Shown: positions 356 through 52,727 of the stretch, piece by piece
Layout of the letters: every line of letters starts with the position of its first letter
Position numbering within the stretch: position 1 is the first letter of the stretch
Source of the DNA: a virus
DNA: 64,000 nucleotides
Direction: 5' to 3' (one strand)
IMG/VR virus record: IMGVR_UViG_3300026488_000015
Location: 82,526 to 146,525 of that record
Program-made: the position numbers and the translations under genes
Notes under the pieces: model-generated
Databases searched by the model: none
Seen by the model: only the letters and a program-made list of their open reading frames with translations
Told to the model about the DNA's origin: nothing

Positions 356-805
356 CTAAGGCTTAACGAGTTCGAAATGCGGTAAATCATCAAAACTCTG
401 GTCTCTAAATGTATCATCTCCATCCCAATCTAACCCAAAACGAACCTTGTGATTAATGGCACCTTGAGCATATAAATCTTCTGATATTGCTTTAACCATA
501 CCCATCATCATATAAAATCTAGCATTGTCTTTAGTGTTATTACTAAAAGCATTTGAACCTTTCTTGTACGGCATAATATCTACTGCGTAAGAAAAACCAT
601 CACCTTTATCTTGATGTTTAGATTTCTTTTTGATACCATCAAGCTTTGAACGGCCTTCGTTAAATAACATTTGTTGTCGTTCTTCAGTTCTAAGACCTTC
701 GAGGACACTAAAATCGTAAAACTTAATGAGGACATTAAGAATTGCTTGAATGTCTTCGTGGCAAGTAACTAGTTGAGCTTCTGATTTTCTTCCAAAATTA
801 TACAT
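356..805 (-). CDS. Endolysin, M15-family L-Ala-D-Glu peptidase
   Basis: EGLRTEERQ, SKH...AVDI and D-x-P-H-F-E-L zinc-peptidase motifs. Confidence 0.9.
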   Translation of the reverse strand: MYNFGRKSEAQLVTCHEDIQAILNVLIKFYDFSVLEGLRTEERQQMLFNEGRSKLDGIKKKSKHQDKGDGFSYAVDIMPYKKGSNAFSNNTKDNARFYMMMGMVKAISEDLYAQGAINHKVRFGLDWDGDDTFRDQSFDDLPHFELVKP

Positions 806-813
806 ATTATCCT

Positions 814-1404
814 CTATTTTTTAAGTTTCTTTAAAAACTTTAATGATGGTAAGAATACCATTTCGATTGTCTTACCTCTTTTAGAAGCAGATACAGTAAA
901 TTCTTCTGTTTCAAATTCTAATTCGTTATAATCTTTATCAAGAATTTTCTCTTTCATACCACCTTTCTCTAAAGCAGCAGCAAGTTTCATTAACCAACCT
1001 CTTGGTGGTTTAGATACATCGATGAAAATTTCTTTAGCATCATCTGTGTCCATCCAAATCGGGTCATCTTTTCTTACTAATTTGTTTGTCTTACCAAAAT
1101 TCTTATTGATTGAATCAACAACTTTCGCTACAGATTCAGCAGGTAAAGAACCTACATCAGCACCTTCTGTTAGTGAAACTGACCAAGACTTTGTGTATTT
1201 TTTAAATTTAGTAGGAATTTCAATTATACTATCATCAGCATAACTCCAATCTTTGTCTTTTAAACCATATTGCTTAAGACTATCTATGAAATAGAAAAAG
1301 TCATCATTTTCTTGTTCTTGTCCATCTGAATAAGTGCCAATTAAGTCACTCACATTTACTTTTAATGTTTTCTCTTCATTTACGAATTTACTAAATTTTA
1401 TCAT
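814..1404 (-). CDS. Putative internal head protein with N-terminal capsid-targeting-like sequence
   Basis: Starts MIKFSKFVNEE; lies in a late-promoter operon. Confidence 0.65.
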   Translation of the reverse strand: MIKFSKFVNEEKTLKVNVSDLIGTYSDGQEQENDDFFYFIDSLKQYGLKDKDWSYADDSIIEIPTKFKKYTKSWSVSLTEGADVGSLPAESVAKVVDSINKNFGKTNKLVRKDDPIWMDTDDAKEIFIDVSKPPRGWLMKLAAALEKGGMKEKILDKDYNELEFETEEFTVSASKRGKTIEMVFLPSLKFLKKLKK

Positions 1405-1802
1405 TATGATTCTCCATTTTCGTGTTTAAATATTCTAATGTATGCTTTACCATCATTTTTCTTAGCGAACTCATTACTAGCACTAAAAGAAAATTCAGTA
1501 CCATCAGCAGTGAAAGTACCTTCTACATCTTCTGCTTTAGAAGCACTGTTTTGTTTGAATTTATATTTCTTTAAGAAATTTGTAAGTTCAACTTTTTGTT
1601 CATACGAAAATTCACCTTCAACAAACTGCCATAAATTGATACTTACACCATCCATACTACGAACTTTATCTTGTAGTTTACCTTTAGGTTTCATTCCAAT
1701 CTTTTTTAATGCTAGAACTATAACTGACTCAACAAAATCCCAATCATCATCTTTCTTTGGGCTAAAAAGACCTTCATTTACGAATTTACTAAATTTTATC
1801 AT
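1404..1802 (-). CDS. Putative internal head protein (CTS-like N-terminus)
   Basis: Starts MIKFSKFVNEG. Confidence 0.65.
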   Translation of the reverse strand: MIKFSKFVNEGLFSPKKDDDWDFVESVIVLALKKIGMKPKGKLQDKVRSMDGVSINLWQFVEGEFSYEQKVELTNFLKKYKFKQNSASKAEDVEGTFTADGTEFSFSASNEFAKKNDGKAYIRIFKHENGES

Positions 1803-1812
1803 TTTGTTTCTC

Positions 1813-2355
1813 CTATACCTTTATATTCCAAAAAGCAAAAACTAATTCTTTGCCGTTTGCATCTTTTGCCATTATTTCTGTATCAGCGTGTTTCTTATCG
1901 AGTTTTTGTTTTTGAACTGTAACAACTGTATCTTTAATAAGTTTTACATTTGTTTCGTATTCAAAATCAATCTTTTCGCCTTTCGCTAAAGTTACTTTTG
2001 TTTCGCCTTTAGTAATACTCTTCATAATATCTCTTGTATCAAAGAAAATTCCATTAGGGTTACCAACCCAATCTCTATTATGTTTGGCTTCTAACTTTCT
2101 CCACTCACTCCAAGGCATATTGATTGTTTTACCTGATTTATAATCAAGTAGTTCAATAGTTTCTTTTCCTAGTTTCGTCTTCTTATATAGTACATCGGGT
2201 ATTACTTTAGCACTTTCTGATTTACCAATAGTTACAGACTCGCCTACATCGTGTTCATCATAAATTGACATACTTCTATCTAATTTATTTTTGAACCAAG
2301 ACCAAAGACCTTCGTTTATATTGCTTTCTGATACGAACTCGCTAAATTTTATCAT
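1813..2355 (-). CDS. Putative internal head protein (CTS-like N-terminus)
   Basis: Starts MIKFSEFVSESNINEG; AGGAG RBS. Confidence 0.65.
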   Translation of the reverse strand: MIKFSEFVSESNINEGLWSWFKNKLDRSMSIYDEHDVGESVTIGKSESAKVIPDVLYKKTKLGKETIELLDYKSGKTINMPWSEWRKLEAKHNRDWVGNPNGIFFDTRDIMKSITKGETKVTLAKGEKIDFEYETNVKLIKDTVVTVQKQKLDKKHADTEIMAKDANGKELVFAFWNIKV

Positions 2356-2373
2356 TTTGTTTCTCCTATTTAA

Positions 2374-2676
2374 TTACTTTAATCTTACCCATATCATTTT
2401 AATATCTTCAACTTCTATATTAACGAACTTTTGGTCGTTCCCGTCCACAGCTTTAATGGGTTTCAAAGACCTGATATTTTTTTCGTCTCTTTCCGTAAAT
2501 ACTCTTGAGCTTTGGATGCTACCATCTTCATCTTTGTATTCTACTTCACCAAACCAGCCTGTCCCATCAGTAGTCATTACTTCTTTAAAACCATAGTTGT
2601 CCTTAGTCACTAAGTACATTTCTGATGCTTCATTTATTGCCTCATTGTCGTGAGTATATTCGCTAAATTTTTTCAT
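2374..2676 (-). CDS. Putative internal head protein (CTS-like); true start probably 2676 rather than 2703
   Basis: Internal Met gives MKKFSEYTHDNEAINEA, coupled to the stop of the upstream gene. Confidence 0.6.
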   Translation of the reverse strand: MKKFSEYTHDNEAINEASEMYLVTKDNYGFKEVMTTDGTGWFGEVEYKDEDGSIQSSRVFTERDEKNIRSLKPIKAVDGNDQKFVNIEVEDIKMIWVRLK

Positions 2677-3161
2677 TAGTCTTCTCCTTTTGTGTTTTTC
2701 CAATCTAAATTTAATTCTTCTGTGTATTCTTCTTGAACAAAGAAATCTATATCATCTAAATCTTCAATATCTAAAGTATTTATATCATAATCTTCTAAAT
2801 CGTAGCTTAATGTGATATGAGGAATGTAATCAGGGAAATCATAAGTACCATCGTATTCTTTCATAAGATATTCGTGTCTTGCTTTTAAATCAGGAGAATC
2901 TAACTGCAGTACAAGTACTTTTGTGTCACCCTCAAAGATTTTAAATGAGTGTAGTGGTGTATCGTATTGAACTTTTCCAGCTGACTCATAGCCCTCAAGC
3001 TTTGAACGGCTAAACATAATAGTTGTATGGTAATCTGTATTGATATTAGGAATATCGTTATCTTTACAGAATTCCTCTAAACCCTTTTCAACATCTTTCG
3101 AGAAGCGACCACCAACATAGGTACCTTTCTTCTCTTCATTACAAAATTCTGAAAATCTCAT
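2676..3161 (-). CDS. acb1: Acb1-like (T4 gp57B-type) 2H phosphoesterase, anti-CBASS nuclease
   Basis: Two HxT motifs (YHTTIMFSR, YIPHITLSY), GTYV...F start, LVLQLDS..L..RH and L.LDW end, all matching T4 57B as I recall it. Confidence 0.85.
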   Translation of the reverse strand: MRFSEFCNEEKKGTYVGGRFSKDVEKGLEEFCKDNDIPNINTDYHTTIMFSRSKLEGYESAGKVQYDTPLHSFKIFEGDTKVLVLQLDSPDLKARHEYLMKEYDGTYDFPDYIPHITLSYDLEDYDINTLDIEDLDDIDFFVQEEYTEELNLDWKNTKGED

Positions 3162-3481
3162 CTATAACCCTTTTTATTGATATATTCTATTGTAGTATCA
3201 GTTAATTTTGTTTTAATAGTATAGTACCAATTATCGTAAACTTTCGATTCAGAAGTCTTCTCTATTTCCCAATCAATGTCGGGGAATTGTTTGCTTAATC
3301 TTCTCATATCTTTAATTACTACTTCAGACATATCGGTTCCATCACCTACAAGGTATTTCCCTTTTATGCTCCAAGAACCTACAATATCCGTAACTAGTCT
3401 TAAAATACTAGCAGTTTTATCATCTAATTTTGCTTTCTTACTAAATAATCCTTCCTTTATTAATTCGCTAAATGATTTCAT
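3158..3481 (-). CDS. Putative internal head protein (CTS-like)
   Basis: Starts MKSFSELIKEGLFS. Confidence 0.6.
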   Translation of the reverse strand: MKSFSELIKEGLFSKKAKLDDKTASILRLVTDIVGSWSIKGKYLVGDGTDMSEVVIKDMRRLSKQFPDIDWEIEKTSESKVYDNWYYTIKTKLTDTTIEYINKKGYR

Positions 3482-4143
3482 TAGTGTTTCTTTCCATTAA
3501 TCGTTTTGATTTGCCAATCAGTAATAACTGGTTCTCTACCTTTAGTAAATCTTTGAGCAAGATAAGGGTCAATTTTAGCATCATAATCGATTTTAAACAT
3601 TTTAGAACCGTTATCAAGTGTAATGTCAATGATAGTACCACCTAGCTCCATACTTCTGTATGTGAACATAACATAGTCGCCTACTTTAGGTTTTGTTGAT
3701 TCAGTTACTTCAACTTTTTCTTCTTCCTTTTCAGGTTTCTCTTCATCTTTTACTTCCTTCTTCTCAGGTTTCTCTTCTTTTTTCTTAGGCTTTTCTTTCT
3801 TCTCAGGTTTCTCTTCAGGAACTTCTTCCTCTTCTGGCTCAGGCTCTAATTCAGCATCTTCACCTTCTTCAGTCTCTACATCAGCAATATTATCAGCTAT
3901 GAACTGTCCCATTTCTGCACTTAAATCGTGTAGTTTTGCTTCCATATCTAAGATGTTAGCTCTAAGAGGATTATCCTCTCTCATAACTCCTAATACACCT
4001 AAAAGTGATACATTAGCTATACTCGCTTGAATTTCTTTCATCGCTGCTAGAGCCTCGTAACGAACTGCGTTTTCTGTTACTTCTGTTTCTGGAATGATTT
4101 CTACTTTTGATTTAACACCAAGATGGTCTTTGAATGATTTCAT
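3481..4143 (-). CDS. Late Glu/Lys-rich protein, possible prohead core/internal protein
   Basis: MKSFKDHL start, E/K/P low-complexity linker, VTE motifs, first gene after late promoter. Confidence 0.5.
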   Translation of the reverse strand: MKSFKDHLGVKSKVEIIPETEVTENAVRYEALAAMKEIQASIANVSLLGVLGVMREDNPLRANILDMEAKLHDLSAEMGQFIADNIADVETEEGEDAELEPEPEEEEVPEEKPEKKEKPKKKEEKPEKKEVKDEEKPEKEEEKVEVTESTKPKVGDYVMFTYRSMELGGTIIDITLDNGSKMFKIDYDAKIDPYLAQRFTKGREPVITDWQIKTINGKKH

Positions 4144-4165
4144 ATGGTTCTCCTAACTTTATTGA

Positions 4166-4173
4166 TATTTATA
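4166..4173 (-). promoter_or_regulatory. T4-type late promoter TATAAATA
   Basis: Exact match about 20 nt upstream of the internal-protein/endolysin operon. Confidence 0.75.
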
Positions 4174-4450
4174 GGAGATAATGAGGGTGGAATTCTATGA
4201 GTATTTTTTTGAATGAGGGGAATTTTATTAGGTTATGCAATGATGTGTATATGTATTCTCCAGTGAATACGCCTTCGTTTGAGTATTCTTTAGTGTGGAA
4301 TGAACCCCAAGAGTCTTCGTTTAAGTAGTTTTTAAGGATATTTTCGTATGAGTGGTATTTTATTTCATTCTGCCATTTTATAGAGAAAATATGATGGACT
4401 CTTCCTTCCAAATCAATCACGAAAGGAAAACCAAAAGAGTCTTTATTCAT
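4169..4450 (-). CDS. Hypothetical protein with C-terminal PHxxL tag
   Basis: Ends FHPHYLL. Confidence 0.65.
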   Translation of the reverse strand: MNKDSFGFPFVIDLEGRVHHIFSIKWQNEIKYHSYENILKNYLNEDSWGSFHTKEYSNEGVFTGEYIYTSLHNLIKFPSFKKILIEFHPHYLL

Positions 4451-4919
4451 AACGAGATTCGCCGTTCCGTTCTACTAGGATAGGTACTGGTGCTATGTCA
4501 AAATTGAATGCACAAGTGTCACCACATTTGTTGCAAGTGTATCTTACTAAATCTGTATCAGTACAATCTGCTTGGTCGTTGAGTGGGTCGCCACATCCGG
4601 GGCATTTACATACGCAACCACACTGCTCTAGTATTTTTTCTTCTCTACTCTTCTCTAGGCGGAACAGCTTTCTTATGATTCCTAATAACATATTTGCCTC
4701 CTTCTTTGACTAAATATTTATTTAATATTGTTGTTTCTTGTACTGAAATATTTCTCCAATGGCCACCTTGACTATCGTATAAAAATTCTTGGATTGTAGA
4801 ACATTTCTCGCATATTCTATGTGATGGATAAAAACTATCGTATGTTTCATCAAGATATGTCCTTGAGATTACTTGATTTACTTCCACCCATTTATGGAAT
4901 TGATACCATTTACATTTCA

Positions 4920-5273
4920 TTATTCTAGCCAATCAGATATTAAATCAGTTGTTTTATCTGTATTTTCTGCTTTGAAATAACAGATTGCCTCTACCGTTGT
5001 ATTCTCAAATTCTACCTCGATAACGCCTCTAGTATATAAATCAGGCACATCTTCAAATCTATCCAATTCAATAAGCTGTTCTTCGGTTACTTCGTACAGT
5101 TCGCCTTGAATAATATTGCCTTCTTGAGGTCTATCCTCTAAGAAAGGGAAATACCAACGGCTCTTATACATAGGGTAAGGTACTGTCGTTTCGCAAGGAA
5201 ACAAGAACTTGCTATGGTTGTAGTGGTTATTTCTGCAACCTTGTTTGAGTGTTCCATATACAAATAATTTCAT
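4920..5273 (-). CDS. Gamma-glutamylcyclotransferase (GGCT/AIG2-like) family protein
   Basis: LFVYGTLK, GELYEV, LDRFE..P.LY motifs. Confidence 0.88.
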   Translation of the reverse strand: MKLFVYGTLKQGCRNNHYNHSKFLFPCETTVPYPMYKSRWYFPFLEDRPQEGNIIQGELYEVTEEQLIELDRFEDVPDLYTRGVIEVEFENTTVEAICYFKAENTDKTTDLISDWLE

Positions 5274-8581: not shown

Positions 8582-9020
8582 GACCTTCTTAATTTCCAGT
8601 CCGACCACTCTCAGGTTCTACACCTCTTCTACGAGGCATTTGTTTTGCTATTTGTAATGCTGTTAATTTCATTTTCTTATCCTTTATTAGTATAATTGTT
8701 CATTTCATTAATGGATTTTTCTACTAAGATTCTTAAATATTTTGTCTTTTGTTCGTAAGCCTCTTTAGGGGAAGTACCAAACATATTCCAACGGTCATCG
8801 CACTTTAATTGATTGCTTGATGCTTTTATCGTATCTCCGAATTGGTCGATTAGTAAAAAATAACCTCTTAAACCACCATCAAAACTTTTAATAACTTCTA
8901 ATGCTTCTTTTGGATTATCTCTGTGGTAAAATATCTTTTTTAACATTTTTAGTCCTTATCTCTCTTTATATGTAATATTATAACATAAGTAACCTTAAAA
9001 GTAGATTAAGATTATATCAT

Positions 9021-9746
9021 TTATGCATACATTTTGATGTGATTGATTACATCTTGATTATTGTATTGACCCATTTTAAATCTACCTAATGCTGAATTTA
9101 TTATCTCGACATTCGTTAAAGACTTAAACTCTTCTTTTGTAAGAATTGCTTTAAGCATTCTGAAAACTTTCATATCTTTTTTAACAAGACCAAAATGAAC
9201 CTTCTCACCAAAGATGGCATTCATACACTCATATCTATCTGAATACATATTTTTGATAAGATTCAATCTTTTTTCAAGTGAGTATTCTTTAATTCTATTA
9301 GTCATCTTTTTACTAATATCAGCATTAACCTCGACAATAACTGGTGAAGTTTTATAAGAAGTGTTCATAGGTTTTAAATTAAGAGGTGTAGCAACAAGTG
9401 TATGTGCTAATTTAGATAATCTGTCAGCATCTTCATTGAACTCTCTAGGAATCCAATTCAATGTGATGTTAAGACCTTTTGCTAATGTAGATGAAACACC
9501 TTTAGCAGCAACACCTCTATTATCTGTGAATAAATGAGCAGATTCAATATTTCTATCTCTCATATATGTAAGAGTCTTTACTAATGCCATCGTTTCCATA
9601 AGTTCTGAATTATTTTGTGCTTTCGTTTTGTAAGGTAATTCATATCTGATATAGATTTCTTCTTTCGTGTCAAAGTTATAGATACCTATACCACAAAAAC
9701 CTTCGTGGTAACTAGCATCGAAACAGATTTTAGTTTGAGTACTCAT
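9021..9746 (-). CDS. RNase HI-like domain protein with C-terminal extension
   Basis: FDAS, E..AL, LFTDN, WIPREFNEDADRLS acidic catalytic pattern. Confidence 0.75.
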   Translation of the reverse strand: MSTQTKICFDASYHEGFCGIGIYNFDTKEEIYIRYELPYKTKAQNNSELMETMALVKTLTYMRDRNIESAHLFTDNRGVAAKGVSSTLAKGLNITLNWIPREFNEDADRLSKLAHTLVATPLNLKPMNTSYKTSPVIVEVNADISKKMTNRIKEYSLEKRLNLIKNMYSDRYECMNAIFGEKVHFGLVKKDMKVFRMLKAILTKEEFKSLTNVEIINSALGRFKMGQYNNQDVINHIKMYA

Positions 9747-12210
9747 TTTAAATTCCTTTTGTCTCTTTATATGTAATATTATAACATAAAGAACCTTAGA
9801 GCTTTATTAAGAGATTACGGTAACATTTTTCTGTGATTTATATTTTAGTAGTGCTTCGATTATTAGAGGGCTTTTCTTTGGGTTGATGGATACATTAGTT
9901 CTATCTAAAATTAGCACATTATTAACAAAATGAATAATTTCATCAAAGAATACTAGTGAATCAGAACCTAGAGTCAAATATCTACCTTCTTGGTCAATCT
10001 TGAGGTATTCGTATCCTAATGGTAACGATTCTAAAATCTCATCGAATTTTGGGTAGTTTAAGTGGTCTTTAAGACCTAATACTAATTCTTTGATATTATC
10101 TGGTATCTCGTGTTGCACTTCAAAAGGTTCAACCCAAGAGGTGCTCTTATTATATTTCGCGTGGTCACCGTGTGGTTTGCCTGTGTATAGAAAGAACCCT
10201 TTATGACCAGAGCCGTTTTTTTCTGTTCTAAGAATCCACGAATCGTATTCTTCTAAGTACATAACGGCTACATCTTCCATTGTAAGAGGGAATGCTATGT
10301 TATTTGTGTTTACTTCCATTAGTACACCCCATTTTCTAATTTAATAAGAGGACCTTTGATATTGTATATTTCTATATGAGGCATCTTATCATATTTCCCA
10401 TTTAGTAGCTCCTTATAATAAATATAAGCTTCTTCAGAATCTAAAAAACATCCTAGTTCTTGATTATTCCGACCATCATAAACCCTATACATATTATAAG
10501 CTTCTATATCGATTGACATCTGCTCGTAAAATTCTTTGTAACCCATAATTATCCTTTGTTCTCTGTGAAGCTAGTAAGCTAATATACCCAGCGTGAGGCT
10601 ATGACTAAGGCTCGTTTCCAGAATCTCGTTCATATCGTAATAAAATATCTGTCTCTATCTCTTTAAGCTTCTCAGCAATATCGTAATAGCATTCAGAATA
10701 GCAATCTTCACATAAATGTAAGTGAGTACCATATTTGTCGTGTTGTTCATTTAATGAAGCTGTAAGGTGGTGTTCACCAACCCCTCCACATAAATCGCAT
10801 TGTAAATCTTTCATTGATTAACCTTTCTAAGCTTCTGTACTTTTTCCCATCGTTCAAAATCTTCTGAATCTAAAGCCATCGGGTCTTTTTCTTGTACTTT
10901 TATTCCAAAATGTCTAGGTTGAAATTGAGCACCTGACATAATAATGGCAACTATAATAGTCCACTCACTCCAACCTAGAATGATTATGAGGTACAGAAAT
11001 ATACCCCAAATCATTCCTTCATAAAGCACTGTGTACAATAAGAAGTAAAATAATCTAGTTGAGTCTTTCATTAGAGGTCCTCCAAAATATTATCTACATT
11101 TGCAAAGAATACGGTGTTATAAGAACCATCGTATCCCTCGAATGTAACATAAGATGTACTATCTTCTATTTCAATGTCTTCAATGGTTAAAACGCAACCT
11201 AACGAAAACTGCTCTTTCATTCTTTTTTGGTCGTTTGCGTAACCATTATTAGGGAATGCAAAGACTACCCTACTACCCGCTTCAGAATATATATCCATCA
11301 CGGGTCTAGTACCTATAATAGTGTTTGGTATTTTGTCTTCTATTGTGACTTCATCAACGGGGTCAAACGAAATATTCAGCTGTACCCGAGTACCAACCAT
11401 ATCCACTTCATAAATATCTAACTCATTTAATCTTGATTCTGCTTGGGCAATAATAATTTCTTTTCTCGTATGTAGTCTAGCTCTACTAATGTTAGCACCG
11501 AACTCGGTGCTGCTGTTAATATACGATACCAAATAAGGGTAATTATTCTCGCCCTTTTTCTTTAAATAGTAGTTTTTCATAGTTTTCCTTATACAAAAAA
11601 TGCCATCTGAAGAGCCAGAAGCTCATCACTGGTTAATGGTTTAATATTGCTCTTTGTACCTTTACTGAATACATAAACAGAATTCCTAGTACTGATAGAA
11701 ATCTCGTAATAGTGGCGTGAAACTTCGTTGTACTCTATTTTTTCTATTGTAGATGTACTATATCTACCGTGTCGCAAATCAAAATTGCAATCAGTAGCAT
11801 CGAATGTAAAACTAGCAGTCATATCGATATGTAATTTACATTCTTTACCTACGATTTCATCAGCATTAGAATTTGTTGTGCTTAGTAATGTTGTGGTCAT
11901 TATTTTTCCTTTTCTCTTTATATGTAATATTATAACACAAAGTAGCTTAAACCTTCTTTTTAAGTATCATTTGGTTCTCTCCAAGTGCCAAAATTATATG
12001 TCTCACCATTAAATGGCTTCCATAAATCAAAATATAGTATTTTTGTTTGTGTTTTATTCCAACATCTGATTTGTGTATCGGTGTGCTCGATAAACTCTCT
12101 TATCTGATAATGAGTTTTATGCCATTCATTTTTTCTAACAAATATTAACATTATAATTCCTTTTCTCTCTTTATATGTAATATTATAACATACTAAAGAT
12201 AAGAGCCACC

Positions 12211-17316: not shown

Positions 17317-17544
17317 CTAACTAAACCTAACTAAACCAACTAAGTTGATTAAACTGAATACTACATTCATTATAAGCAACTGTCTATTATCATTATTATA
17401 AGCATAAATTGACCATAATATAGAACTCGTGATGAATAATGTATAGCACAACATAAACAAGTCTAAATTTAACGCCATTAACATTGCTGCTGTAACACCC
17501 GTTGTAGTTGCTGAATTTGTAATAAATGTTTCTGATATTCTCAT
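17317..17544 (-). CDS. Small 3-TM membrane protein (PnuC/YgjV-like)
   Basis: Three hydrophobic helices, W..YAY and N..G motifs. Confidence 0.45.
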   Translation of the reverse strand: MRISETFITNSATTTGVTAAMLMALNLDLFMLCYTLFITSSILWSIYAYNNDNRQLLIMNVVFSLINLVGLVRFS

Positions 17545-17720
17545 AATCTTTCCTTCTTCTCTTTATATACAGTATTATAACATAACATAGCTTAAAGGCT
17601 ACTTAAATTTGGAGAAATAAAAAGAATTTTGAAATTCTTTTAGTAGAACTTGGTTTTTACTAAAGTTTTACCTCTAACTTTTATAGATACTACTAAGATA
17701 CAAAACAAACAAGTATCTAA

Positions 17721-17757
17721 CCTCAAGGAAGAGGATGTTTTACACAACGGAGGTGTA
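17721..17757 (+). promoter_or_regulatory. Two GGA-loop hairpins in the flagellin 5' leader (putative CsrA sites)
   Basis: CCTC-AAGGAA-GAGG (17721-17734) and TACAC-AACGGAG-GTGTA (17741-17757); the second overlaps the SD. Confidence 0.7.
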
Positions 17758-17759
17758 TT

Positions 17760-18584
17760 ATGGGATTTACAATCAACACAAACAATAGCGCAAACTTCGC
17801 ACTATTATATGGTAGACAAACACAACAAAAAATAGATAGTTCTTTAGAAAAACTATCAACTGGTCTTAGAATTAACAGAGCAGCAGATGATGCAGCAGGA
17901 ATGGCTATTGCTAATCAGTTAAGAAGCCAATCACAAGGTTTAATTCAAGGTAACAAAAATGCACAAGATGCTATTGGTCTTGTTAAAATAGCAGATGGCG
18001 CAATGGATGAGTATCAAAAAATTCTCGTGACTGCTAGAGATAAATCAGTTCAGGCAGCAAGTGATACGAATTCACCTGAAGCAAGAGCAGTACTCGAAGA
18101 GGAAGTTAAGCAATTACTTCAACAAGCAGATGATATTGCCACTACGACATCATTCAATGGTATTAATCTTTTAGATGGTACATTTACTAGCAAGAAATTT
18201 CAAGTAGGTTCAGAATCTGGCCAAACTATTAGTATGAGTATAGCTAATACTGATATTGCTTCTCAAAATATTGCTGACGCTGATATTGATTTAACTACTC
18301 AAGCAGGTGCTGATGCAGCAATCGTTTCATTGGATGCAGCGATAAAAAGTATTGATGCCGTTAGAAGTGGAATAGGTTCGACTCAAAATGCACTAGAAAG
18401 TAGAGTCCGTGTTAATGAGGCAACTGCCGCAAATGTTATGGCCGCAGAGAGCGCGATTCGTGAAGTTGATTATGCTGCAGAACAAACAGCATTAAATACA
18501 AACACAATCAAGTTACAAGCTAATACATTCGCTTTAGGTAAAGCATTAGAGAACCAACAAATGATTCTTAGTCTGCTTAGATAG
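17760..18584 (+). CDS. Flagellin (short, essentially D0/D1 only)
   Basis: MGFTINTN, LEKLSTGLRINRAADDAAG, FNGINLLDG, FQVG, RSGIGSTQN, AESAIREVDYA. Confidence 0.95.
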   Translation: MGFTINTNNSANFALLYGRQTQQKIDSSLEKLSTGLRINRAADDAAGMAIANQLRSQSQGLIQGNKNAQDAIGLVKIADGAMDEYQKILVTARDKSVQAASDTNSPEARAVLEEEVKQLLQQADDIATTTSFNGINLLDGTFTSKKFQVGSESGQTISMSIANTDIASQNIADADIDLTTQAGADAAIVSLDAAIKSIDAVRSGIGSTQNALESRVRVNEATAANVMAAESAIREVDYAAEQTALNTNTIKLQANTFALGKALENQQMILSLLR

Positions 18585-18936
18585 GGTTTAGGAAAACATC
18601 AACTATGATGATAACCAATCCATAATAGTGTAGAGACTCTTCTTTGGTCTCTGCAATATTACCTTTACCAATAAACAATCCAATATCATTTAAAATATCA
18701 AATAGACCTAGACCTTCAGGTTTAGTATAATCAATCATATCAGACATCAAACGAATACTTTCAAGCATCTTAGATGTAGTTTCAAATTTAATTTTTTGTT
18801 GGGATAATGCTGGTTCTTTTTTCTTTTTTTCTGTTTCTATCTTTATAAGTACAAGAGTTTTTTTCTTTAATAAAGTATAAAATGTTTTTAAGAATTCTTC
18901 TTTACCTAAGACAGCATTTTGTTCGTAAGGGTTCAT
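18577..18936 (-). CDS. FliS-like flagellin chaperone homologue
   Basis: MNPYEQNAV start, four-helix pattern K..SK....I..M...ID.....G..L...L...GN, convergent with the flagellin. Confidence 0.5.
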   Translation of the reverse strand: MNPYEQNAVLGKEEFLKTFYTLLKKKTLVLIKIETEKKKKEPALSQQKIKFETTSKMLESIRLMSDMIDYTKPEGLGLFDILNDIGLFIGKGNIAETKEESLHYYGLVIIIVDVFLNPI

Positions 18937-19214: not shown

Positions 19215-20138
19215 TTATATTGATATTCTCATTTCGTGACGGTTTGGACCAGTAGTATAAATTAATGTACCTGCACCAATTTTTGACATTCTACTGATAA
19301 GTACTTTATTGGCATCTTCAGCTTGTCTGTGACCACTATCGATTGCCCAAACCTCAGTATCGAATGAAGAAAGAATTCTACTTGCTTCTTCTAAATCATT
19401 ACCTTTCTGCGTAAATACGATGTAAGCACCGTTAGCTCCTAATGCAATATAATCCGATTCAGTCTTTTCTGTTTTCTTAATCTTTTCCATAGCTTCGTAC
19501 TTAGCTTTGTTTTCTTTTTTGAGTCTGTCATCTATAGCATCTTGATAGTCTTTCTCTAAACGAGCGTACTCTTTTTTCGTAGTAGGTTTGTTGAATAGCT
19601 CATCAGAAGTCGTATTACAAGTTTTTGTAGAGAATGCATTAACGGCACTAACAAATCTTTTCTTATTCTTTAAGTCTCTTGCTATCTTCTCTGAAGTCTT
19701 CTTATCGAGTTTAACTTTATCACCATTAACGAGAACTTGTACAACTTTACCTTGAAGCATAATAGGTTTTATATGTACTTGTGGTTCATCGTTACGACTA
19801 GGCCAAAATGCAGAACTAACTTTTACTGGAACTTCCAATACAACATCCACAATGTCCTCAGTAGAATTAATAATGGTGCTTATACCTACGGTCACTAAAT
19901 CAGTATTGATAACCTCTATCGTTTGTCTACGAATAATATTTAAGTTATCCAGGTTATTATATGTAAATCTAGCATCATCGATGTCTTTAGCGCCCAAGGC
20001 CTCGATTCCTCTAATTGCTACTTCTCTTTGTTCTTTTGTTGTAAGTGTTTTTGTACTTACTAAGCTCTTAAATGTTCTCATTGCGTCTCCTGGTTTACTA
20101 TTATTTATATCTCTTAGAGATAAATTCGTTAATATCAC
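19215..20138 (-). CDS. Hypothetical protein
   Basis: Long ORF in the operon; true start uncertain. Confidence 0.6.
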   Translation of the reverse strand: MILTNLSLRDINNSKPGDAMRTFKSLVSTKTLTTKEQREVAIRGIEALGAKDIDDARFTYNNLDNLNIIRRQTIEVINTDLVTVGISTIINSTEDIVDVVLEVPVKVSSAFWPSRNDEPQVHIKPIMLQGKVVQVLVNGDKVKLDKKTSEKIARDLKNKKRFVSAVNAFSTKTCNTTSDELFNKPTTKKEYARLEKDYQDAIDDRLKKENKAKYEAMEKIKKTEKTESDYIALGANGAYIVFTQKGNDLEEASRILSSFDTEVWAIDSGHRQAEDANKVLISRMSKIGAGTLIYTTGPNRHEMRISI

Positions 20139-20856
20139 TAAAACAAATCTGAACCTTAGGTCCTTTTTCTAGCTGTACTGTTTCAATATCTGCAATAACA
20201 TCACCATTGACACCGTCAATCCAACAAGTAACGCTCTGTCTTGATTCTACCGAAACTTCAGTAAATCTTGGTTTGATAACAGTACTAAGATGCATATTTG
20301 TTTTATCTCCCGTAACAACCCATTGCTTTGAGTCGATAGGTATCACAACACCTTGATTATTTACACTAATTCCTGTTGAACCTTGTGGTGTACTGATAAT
20401 TATTCCACCACCCTTAAACGATTCAGGAAGAACCTTAGATTTAACAGAAAAATCTATCCAATCCATCATAGTACCACCGATAGCAACTTCATTGAATGCA
20501 TAGTATGATTTAGTTGCCAGATGATGGTTTCGTTTTACTGTTGCTTTAATAGTTCGCAGTGTCTTAGTATTAAAAAATTCTCTCTCGCATACATCTACAA
20601 TAAAATTGTATGGTTCTATATCATTCATAAGAAAGCCTAGTGTCCCAGCATTGATGCCATAGATAGGTAAATCGAAATCGATGTAAGTCTTTACTGTTTT
20701 GAGTAAAGTCCCGTCTCCACCAGCACAGACAATCATTTCTGCTTCGTTAGGTGTATCAACGAGAAATCTTTGAATATTCTCATTTTTCTCAAATAAATCG
20801 TTCCATTCTTGTGTTTTTTTGTTATGTGCTTCATATTTTACGAAGAATATTTTCAT
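20101..20856 (-). CDS. NAD kinase
   Basis: GGDGTLL, GINAGTLGFL, FNEV, ISTPQGSTG. Confidence 0.9.
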   Translation of the reverse strand: MKIFFVKYEAHNKKTQEWNDLFEKNENIQRFLVDTPNEAEMIVCAGGDGTLLKTVKTYIDFDLPIYGINAGTLGFLMNDIEPYNFIVDVCEREFFNTKTLRTIKATVKRNHHLATKSYYAFNEVAIGGTMMDWIDFSVKSKVLPESFKGGGIIISTPQGSTGISVNNQGVVIPIDSKQWVVTGDKTNMHLSTVIKPRFTEVSVESRQSVTCWIDGVNGDVIADIETVQLEKGPKVQICFSDINEFISKRYK

Positions 20857-52220: not shown

Positions 52221-52727
52221 TTATAATCCTAGGTGTGGTTTTTCTGTAATGAGTTTTGTATATCGTTCTGTGTCTATAACCATTGTATCATAATGTTCTT
52301 TTGTTCTCTCTCTAAAAGTCTCTGAATTAGAGAAAGCAAATACGAAAGCCTCTTCTTCTAACACAAAAGAGTTATCATATAATAGCTTAATAGAATATTC
52401 AGCATATTCTTCTTTCTTAGCGGAAAAAGTATATGCTGAATTCCATTGTTTTTCGCTAATATTGTACTCTTCTATCTCAATATGAATATAAGGTCTACCC
52501 CAAACTATATTTTTTACTCTATGTTTTATTACAGATGCATTATAGGCATTATCACTATACAAGTGCACTACATAAAATTCATCATCAGGAACAACTTCAA
52601 ATACACTAAGATGCTGTTTTATTTCTTCTAGTGTTAATGGGATAGAATGCGTAGTAATAAGTATCTCTGGTTCATCAACTGCATCAAGCAGGGCATCTAT
52701 CTCTGATTGAGATAATATACTTGCCAT
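52221..52727 (-). CDS. Protein with FliM-like N-terminal CheY-binding peptide and PHxxL tag
   Basis: Starts MASILSQSEIDALL; ends TEKPHLGL. Confidence 0.7.
   Translation of the reverse strand: MASILSQSEIDALLDAVDEPEILITTHSIPLTLEEIKQHLSVFEVVPDDEFYVVHLYSDNAYNASVIKHRVKNIVWGRPYIHIEIEEYNISEKQWNSAYTFSAKKEEYAEYSIKLLYDNSFVLEEEAFVFAFSNSETFRERTKEHYDTMVIDTERYTKLITEKPHLGL

Follow-up and report, generated by a model that had tools for sequence, protein, structure and literature searches.

A flagellin and a putative FliS-type chaperone encoded by a large T4-like environmental phage

In an Enterobacter prophage, the RNA-guided protein TldR represses the host's fliC and the prophage's own flagellin, FliC-P, takes over (PMC13418256; bioRxiv 10.1101/2023.11.30.569447). 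Here we describe a phage-borne flagellin gene, and a convergent gene for a putative FliS-type flagellin chaperone, in a stretch of 64,000 nucleotides (nt) of viral DNA. This stretch, which we call the window, is positions 82526-146525 of the 146,525-bp IMG/VR virus record IMGVR_UViG_3300026488_000015. The record is a metagenome assembly with a CheckV completeness of 68%. As we propose for the phage in the window, the phage supplies a flagellin, FliC-P, which takes the place of the host's subunit or adds to it and is assembled by the host's machinery.

The two systems also differ. FliC-P belongs to a temperate phage of Enterobacteriaceae, whereas the window phage appears to be a virulent-type T4-like myovirus of Campylobacterota. 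FliC-P has enlarged outer domains (D2-D4) that form a sheath-like mesh, while the window flagellin has just 274 amino acids (aa) and consists of domains D0 and D1. We found no TldR/TnpB-like gene beside the window flagellin, in that none of the small open reading frames (ORFs) within about 2.5 kb had a TnpB-like Pfam or PHROG match (no search for a guide RNA was made). The window phage instead seems to have a private, diverged FliS and a CsrA-type leader; fliS is not mentioned in the main text of the FliC-P/TldR paper (PMC13418256). Relatives in which FlgK/FlgL, FlaG or a group I intron is present differ from the FliC-P/TldR system in these respects as well.

Among cellular systems, the flagellin genes of Campylobacter jejuni offer a useful comparison. 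Like flaA of C. jejuni, the window gene encodes Campylobacterota-type D0 and D1 domains, has two hairpins with ANGGA loops in its leader, the second of them over the ribosome-binding site, and has GGA as its second codon (PMC4894983). The N-terminal Y-x-Q-N motif of C. jejuni FliS also recurs in the putative phage chaperone (PMC11536152). In contrast, C. jejuni FlaA has glycosylated outer domains, which the phage flagellin lacks; the promoter of the window flagellin is not a clear sigma-28 promoter; and host FliS and phage FliS have no detectable pairwise similarity. The short flagellins of Sulfurimonas (about 275 aa; loci L090, L094, L124, L164 and L020) have the same length, domain plan and phylum-level clade as the window flagellin, and the host-type loci L019 and L020 have leader hairpins like those of the window phage. 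However, the Sulfurimonas proteins are just 39-45% identical to the window flagellin, and their conservation profile is the opposite of that of the phage proteins. Finally, the putative phage chaperone resembles bacterial FliS (PF02561; structures 1ORJ/1ORY from Aquifex, 3IQC from H. pylori, 5MAW/6GOW from B. subtilis and 6CH3 from Salmonella) in its size, in its cap and four-helix bundle, in the position of its gene beside a flagellin and in its N-terminal tyrosine motif. It differs in being beyond the reach of single-sequence searches and in its fast evolution: where two phages have flagellins that are 72% identical, their FliS proteins share 30% identity.

The two genes are as follows, with the evidence for each in parentheses.

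17760-18584, plus strand: phage flagellin, 274 aa, D0 and D1 only (Pfam, AlphaFold2 (AF2) model, PDB matches, tree)
18577-18936, minus strand: putative diverged FliS-type chaperone, 119 aa (family profiles, AF2 fold, N-terminal motif, gene neighbourhood)

An earlier sequence-only reading of this DNA had described the first ORF as a phage-encoded flagellin with intact conserved ends and almost no middle, and our comparisons confirm that it is a genuine, intact, phage-borne flagellin. The Pfam domain Flagellin_N scores 144.4 bits (the cut-off is 26.6), with residues 5-143 spanning positions 1-139 of the 139-position profile, and Flagellin_C scores 54.5 bits (cut-off 23) over residues 191-273. 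The AF2 model (predicted local distance difference test (pLDDT) 81.5) consists of N-terminal D0 and D1 segments (ND0, 9-34; ND1, 44-129), a beta-hairpin (131-160), and C-terminal D1 and D0 segments (CD1, 181-233; CD0, 238-273), and has no D2 or D3 domain. Its helices are at 9-34, 44-101, 106-129, 181-233 and 238-273, and its strands lie within 131-160. Both termini are canonical (MGFTINTN and LSLLR), and GGA follows the start codon, as it does in C. jejuni flaA. The best matches by sequence in PDB include C. jejuni FlaA (6x80, E = 1.6e-48), and solved filaments built from flagellins of 270-276 aa exist.

The location of the gene also fits what had been noted. In the 146.5-kb record, 208 of 219 non-overlapping ORFs (chosen greedily) are on the minus strand, so the flagellin is one of just 11 on the plus strand. 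Its stop codon (TAG, 18582-18584) lies beyond that of the convergent ORF (TAA, 18577-18579 on the minus strand), and the two genes overlap by 8 nt. The locus is 100 kb into the contig and has phage genes on either side: genes for tail sheath, baseplate wedge, SbcC, Nampt, RnlA/RnlB, NrdAB and a CCA-adding enzyme flank it on both sides. The GC content of the flagellin gene (0.372) and its GC content at third codon positions (0.189) are within about 1.5 standard deviations of those of the phage genes.

The second ORF had been described as FliS-like, and a profile comparison with FliS bears this out at the level of the protein family, along with a four-helix fold and an N-terminal motif. The window protein itself gave no match in single-sequence searches of Pfam (E up to 10), of PHROGs, or of FliS in PDB (by phmmer), and a word-indexed protein search returned the protein itself alone. 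We therefore relied on its homologues, which adjoin flagellin genes in other loci. They are convergent with the flagellin in the window, L007/L008, L010 and L012, and are on the same strand and immediately downstream in L014, L016 and L017; in L011, the FliS-like gene lies beyond flgL and flgK. A profile of eight of these sequences found 79 clusters (at 50% identity) among 1.84 billion representatives. By itself, this shallow profile was suggestive at most (E = 0.12 for FliS in PDB; hhalign probability 24%), so a deeper profile of 66 sequences was required. When the 66-sequence profile was compared to PDB, the top seven matches were all FliS, and the first four had E values of 4e-4 to 1e-3. 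Comparing the family to five FliS proteins of Campylobacterota with hhalign gave a probability of 88% (E = 3e-6). Of the 66 family members, 12 match Pfam's FliS directly (best E = 3.4e-17); the L010 orthologue narrowly misses the cut-off of 26.7 bits (26.1 bits, E = 1.1e-5, positions 17-107 of the 115-position profile).

The AF2 model of the 119-aa protein (pLDDT 87.2) has a cap helix (3-6) and an antiparallel four-helix bundle (12-35, 44-66, 73-93 and 98-116). The best natural matches from Foldseek are FliS chains from Bacillus, Aquifex, Helicobacter and Salmonella, with template modelling (TM) scores of 0.67-0.71 and root-mean-square deviations of 2.0-2.8 Å. The E values are weak (0.05-0.3) and designed bundles score alike, so the fold alone would not identify the protein as FliS. 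In C. jejuni FliS, residues Y7, Y10 and N13 dock on FlhA, where FliS and FlaG compete (PMC11536152). The N terminus of the phage protein has NPYEQNAV where host FliS has NIYAQNNV, so that by motif Y4 and N7 align with Y10 and N13. Of the 66 family members, 60 retain an N-terminal tyrosine. The phage protein has no counterpart of Y7, as its N terminus is shorter by about six residues. We read the 119-aa ORF as a highly diverged FliS that is predicted to be export-competent, with the caveat of remote homology. The gene has no promoter gap of its own, so it is probably co-transcribed with the minus-strand genes upstream of it.

Just upstream of the flagellin gene are two predicted stem-loops (from minimum free energy folds).

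17721-17734, plus strand: leader stem-loop 1 (SL1), CCUC-AAGGAA-GAGG, with a CsrA-type GGA loop
17741-17757, plus strand: leader stem-loop 2 (SL2), UACAC-AACGGAG-GUGUA, with the Shine-Dalgarno sequence GGAGG in its loop

This layout is that of SL1 and SL2 in the leader of C. jejuni flaA and suggests putative control by CsrA. In C. jejuni, CsrA binds the loops of both hairpins and can itself be titrated by the leader (PMC4894983). An SL1-type hairpin recurs in L010/L017, L011, L012 and L014/L016, and in the host-type loci L145, L019 and L020. We found six different stems around the A(A)GGA loop: CCUC/GAGG, UUUCACA/UGUGAAA, AACUAUCAA/UUGAUAGUU (with one paired swap in L012), UGGAA/UUCCA, CAGCA/UGCUG and UCUCAGC/GUUGAGA. 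This covariation was read from the stems themselves, as MAFFT placed L011 and L012 out of register. Among 218 phage genes, 12 have an upstream SL1-type hairpin and just 3 have both kinds of hairpin. Neither CsrA nor FliW is encoded in the phage fragment, and both are above cut-off in all five candidate host genomes that we considered. The two-hairpin leader and the presence of CsrA and FliW in candidate hosts make the previously suggested link to the FliW-CsrA switch plausible.

The promoter of the flagellin gene is less clear. One candidate region and one example of a phage promoter nearby are:

17661-17690, plus strand: candidate promoter region of the flagellin gene; TAAAGTTT is a perfect sigma-28 -35 box
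17573-17584, minus strand: phage promoter of the gene at 17317-17544

In the candidate region, a GATA core is displaced by 3 nt past the sigma-28 consensus spacing and overlaps TATAGATA, which is one mismatch from the T4-type late box of the phage (TATAAATA) and lies 78 nt upstream of the flagellin gene. We rejected a canonical sigma-28 promoter for the window flagellin, as this -10 core is out of register and the looser pattern that would accommodate it is present at 33 places in the genome. Of the 29 copies of the late box TATAAATA on the minus strand, 20 are within 120 nt upstream of gene starts. The early-type promoter of the phage, TTAAGG...TTATGTTATAAT-AYTACATATAAAG (TATGTTATAAT), occurs in 38 of 59 intergenic gaps and is absent from the plus strand at the flagellin gene. 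Relatives of the locus have clearer signals. In L013, L014, L016 and L017, which belong to a subclade with flagellins of 267-269 aa, the flagellin is preceded by a host-type sigma-28 promoter (TAAGTTTT-N11-CCGATAT) that equals the promoter of a Campylobacterales flagellin, and in L010 an exact TATAAATA is upstream of the flagellin leader.

Given its T4-like gene set and T4-type late promoters, the source of the window appears to be a large T4-like myovirus of the virulent type. Other phage genes in the record encode fibre-type proteins, two RNA ligases, an NAD-kinase-like protein and thymidylate synthase. The tail sheath shares 41% identity with its counterparts in large Vibrio T4-like phages and 37% with those in Campylobacter phages. 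The flagellin gene is in the non-structural half of the genome. Identical copies of the flagellin and of the FliS-like protein were each recorded on a 331,651-bp contig from another assembly, so the real genome may be much larger than the 146.5-kb record. Other long contigs, including one of 496 kb, also bear members of the flagellin clade described below. NAD-related genes are scattered in the phage: the NAD-kinase-like gene (window 20101-20856, minus strand) is 1.5 kb from the flagellin module and the Nampt gene (record 3593-4993, minus strand) is near the start of the record. The window also encodes, at 52221-52727 on the minus strand, a 168-aa protein that starts with MASILSQSEIDALL. This is the CheY-P docking motif from the N terminus of FliM, as judged by the sequence motif alone. 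The presence of a FliM-type CheY-docking peptide in the same phage points to a wider grip on motility.

About 80 metagenome proteins of 267-274 aa are 50-85% identical to the window flagellin. In contrast, the best full-length match in the species genomes of GTDB is 45% identical (from Sulfurimonas), with none above that value and many phyla at about 40%. The cultured phages in our phage collection have no close copy: the best match is 37% identical, from a Bacillus prophage-like record, and none is from a Campylobacter phage. The sequence-only reading had proposed a phylogeny against host flagellins. In a maximum likelihood tree, 31 of the short flagellins form a single clade (100 by the Shimodaira-Hasegawa-like approximate likelihood ratio test; stem of 0.42) that includes no named cellular genome. 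This clade is nested within a clade of Campylobacterota (support 100), beside flagellins of 450-480 aa and a Sulfurospirillum flagellin, which supports Campylobacterota as the host group. From the tree and from composition, the host phylum appears to be Campylobacterota, and the host is probably Sulfurimonas-like, among the sulfur-oxidising members of that phylum. Within the phage clade, a sister subclade with proteins of 267-269 aa has a non-canonical N terminus (MFNLGQAQ...).

Several members of the clade are clearly in phage DNA. The flagellin-FliS pair is present in a complete phage of 154,998 bp, which has direct terminal repeats and encodes a tail sheath (L007; genome G006). Two more members (L008 and L009) are IMG/VR records, and L014 and L016 are from contigs of 172 kb and 290 kb with a phage DNA polymerase, PHROG families and a virion protein. 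Between the window phage and the complete phage, the flagellin is 72% identical, FliS is 30% identical, and the large subunit of ribonucleotide reductase is 23% identical; the two phages have little else in common. An unusually strong constraint on the flagellin would account for this, as would movement of the module from phage to phage.

The "minimal" form of the flagellin is not a trait of the phage. The nearest cellular flagellins, from Sulfurimonas (L090, L094 and L124), are 275-277 aa. (Host-type loci can have tandem copies, with two in L090 and five in L020.) Because the likely hosts' own flagellins have about 275 aa, a core-only flagellin is the host norm, and by this comparison the lack of a variable middle is inherited. 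It had been suggested that losing the hypervariable middle would remove surface epitopes. This idea fares poorly: the nearest cellular flagellins likewise lack it, and members of the phage clade show no hypervariability in the exposed hairpin.

In some relatives, the module includes more genes for flagellar assembly, which would have no obvious use other than in the construction of a filament. In L011, whose flagellin is 82% identical to that of the window, a FlgL-like gene and a flgK lie between the flagellin and the FliS-like gene (8722-10576). The FlgL-like protein has 259 aa (PDB 3pwx, E = 1.3e-4), and the compact FlgK of 353 aa matches Flg_bb_rod, FlgK_D1 and Flg_bbr_C, all above cut-offs. 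L014 (9056-9364) and L016 encode FlaG (31 bits in Pfam) after the flagellin and the FliS-like gene, all in one direction. Neighbours in these two loci include genes for DnaJ, topoisomerase, NMNAT-like and CCA-adding enzymes; the NMNAT-like gene of L014 is beside the flagellin module. In L013, a 6.4-kb contig, genes for a Cas3-like protein of 943 aa and for Cas1 (295 aa) immediately precede a 269-aa member of the clade (642-4353). This could be either a phage-borne CRISPR-Cas system or a cellular context, and there is no FliS-like gene downstream of the flagellin in this contig.

Group I introns interrupt highly expressed core genes of T4-like phages. In L011, L012 and L009, a group I intron of about 1.2 kb (L011:6802-8000) splits the flagellin between D44 and A45, within the invariant motif AADDAAG. 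The 5' exon ends with U and the intron ends with G. RF00028 from Rfam matches L011:7646-7951 with 66.6 bits (E = 2e-16); at gathering thresholds, Rfam missed the intron when whole loci were searched, and it was revealed by searching the short stretch. The intron contains an ORF of 292 aa (L011:6839-7717) with a zinc ribbon, which is probably a homing endonuclease. The window's copy of the flagellin has no intron.

What might such a phage do with a flagellin? We consider that the best reading, to which we give about an even chance, is chaperoned export through the host's flagellar secretion system followed by incorporation into the filament. In an infected cell that is already flagellated, the flagellin mRNA would be translated under the host's CsrA-FliW checkpoint. 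The phage FliS would bind its own flagellin at the diverged C-terminal D0 and pass the subunit to the host's FlhA, and the subunit would be secreted through the flagellar type III system and polymerise under the host's cap. The filament could thereby be kept up or rebuilt with phage subunits as host gene expression declines. The likely benefit would be that the infected cell's swimming in steep chemical gradients is continued or altered; alternatively, a changed filament surface might block further adsorption. Intact D0 and D1 domains, a putative chaperone with the export-gate motif, host-type translational control, and the junction and length proteins of relatives fit export and filament incorporation best. 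The sequence-only reading had also raised the possibility that the phage flagellin jams export. The apparent retention of the Tyr-x-Gln-Asn export-gate motif, and the presence of FlgK/FlgL or FlaG in relatives, argue against this.

A broader proposal, which we hold somewhat more tentatively, is that virulent phages of vent Campylobacterota rebuild the host's filament during lytic infection, using their own subunit and a private chaperone that is insulated from the host's FliS. Some of these phages would add FlgK/FlgL or FlaG, and a FliM mimic would steer swimming. We propose that the chaperone and its substrate are a private pair because FliS and the D0 domain of the flagellin co-diverge fast. 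Such a system would parallel, for motility, the photosynthesis genes of cyanophages.

Several observations weigh against export and incorporation into the filament. First, FlgK, FlgL, FliD and FlaG are absent from the 146-kb fragment and from the complete 155-kb relative, which have the flagellin-FliS pair only. Second, the assignment of FliS rests on remote homology, and the window protein itself has no significant match. Third, the candidate promoter of the window flagellin is neither canonical sigma-28 nor canonical phage early or late. Fourth, D0 is the least conserved part of the flagellin in the phage clade (64% for ND0 and 59% for CD0, versus 71-75% for D1). In contrast, host flagellins of the Sulfurimonas type conserve D0 the most (86-92%) and vary in the exposed hairpin (54%). 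D0 forms the inner tube and contains the signals for export and for binding FliS, so its variability could mean that the pressure to polymerise is relaxed, which would favour explanations without a filament. The divergence of D0 may instead reflect the co-evolution of CD0 with a private, fast-evolving FliS. Also, the host set includes tandem paralogues, so the contrast between phage and host conservation may be overstated.

The strongest competitor to filament incorporation is a regulatory decoy, which we think unlikely. The leader RNA would soak up CsrA, or flagellin held in the cytoplasm by FliS would soak up FliW, or both, and the translation of the CsrA regulon would be altered; any filament would be incidental or absent. 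Two hairpins with GGA loops and covarying stems, a combination of hairpins that is rare in the phage (3 of 218 genes), speak for a decoy, the candidate hosts carry both CsrA and FliW, and relaxed conservation of D0 would suit a protein that does not need to polymerise. However, a decoy would not need a full-length D1 and hairpin that are 70-85% conserved, nor a chaperone that keeps the export-gate motif, nor FlgK/FlgL or FlaG in relatives. Furthermore, the effects of the RNA and of the protein would oppose each other: the RNA would leave less free CsrA, while the protein would leave less free FliW and hence more free CsrA.

A little less likely still is a flagellin that is secreted without forming a filament, as with FlaC, or that competes for the FlhA gate, so that growth of the host's filament is halted or a soluble product is released. 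There is a precedent in C. jejuni, whose short, non-structural flagellin FlaC is secreted through the flagellum (PMC5466977). The weak conservation of D0 in the phage clade would fit such a role, as would the non-canonical N terminus of the sister subclade. But the window flagellin keeps canonical N and C termini, its clade groups with filament-type flagellins of Campylobacterota, and the junction proteins in L011 imply assembly on the hook.

It seems improbable that the flagellin is a component of the virion or of its assembly, with a chaperone-held coiled coil of the flagellin fold recruited into a fibre or some other structure of the particle. No phage early promoter precedes the gene, the near-late box TATAGATA is upstream of it and the exact box is upstream of the L010 leader, and PHROGs has flagellin-like families of unknown function (phrog_16088), all of which would be compatible with a late structural gene. 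Sigma-28 promoters, a CsrA leader, a FliS with the gate motif, FlaG and FlgK/FlgL are instead parts for flagellar export and assembly, not for a capsid or tail, and the gene's position in the non-structural half of the genome also speaks against this role. Lastly, although the record comes from a metagenome assembly, a bacterial flagellin locus mis-joined to a phage contig is hardly credible given phage genes on both sides 100 kb deep in the contig, a composition inside the phage range, the identical protein on the 331,651-bp contig, the same gene pair in an independent complete phage with terminal repeats and in other phage-like contigs, and the lack of a close copy in any cellular genome (among GTDB species genomes).

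In the literature that we searched, the only phage-encoded flagellins were those of temperate Enterobacter prophages that silence the host's gene via TldR. The window locus represents another kind of solution, which seems to be widespread among environmental phages of the virulent type, with dozens of clade members of 267-274 aa and 79 clusters of the partner protein. The host's control of late flagellar genes seems to be kept (via the CsrA leader, and via sigma-28 promoters in relatives) and a dedicated chaperone appears to have been added. The natural chaperone-substrate pair may be useful for understanding the specificity of FliS, and some relatives have a rare instance of a group I intron within a flagellin gene. 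If the subunit is truly assembled, then lytic phages invest in the swimming of infected cells. This would bear on the influence of viruses on sulfur oxidation that depends on chemotaxis at redox interfaces.

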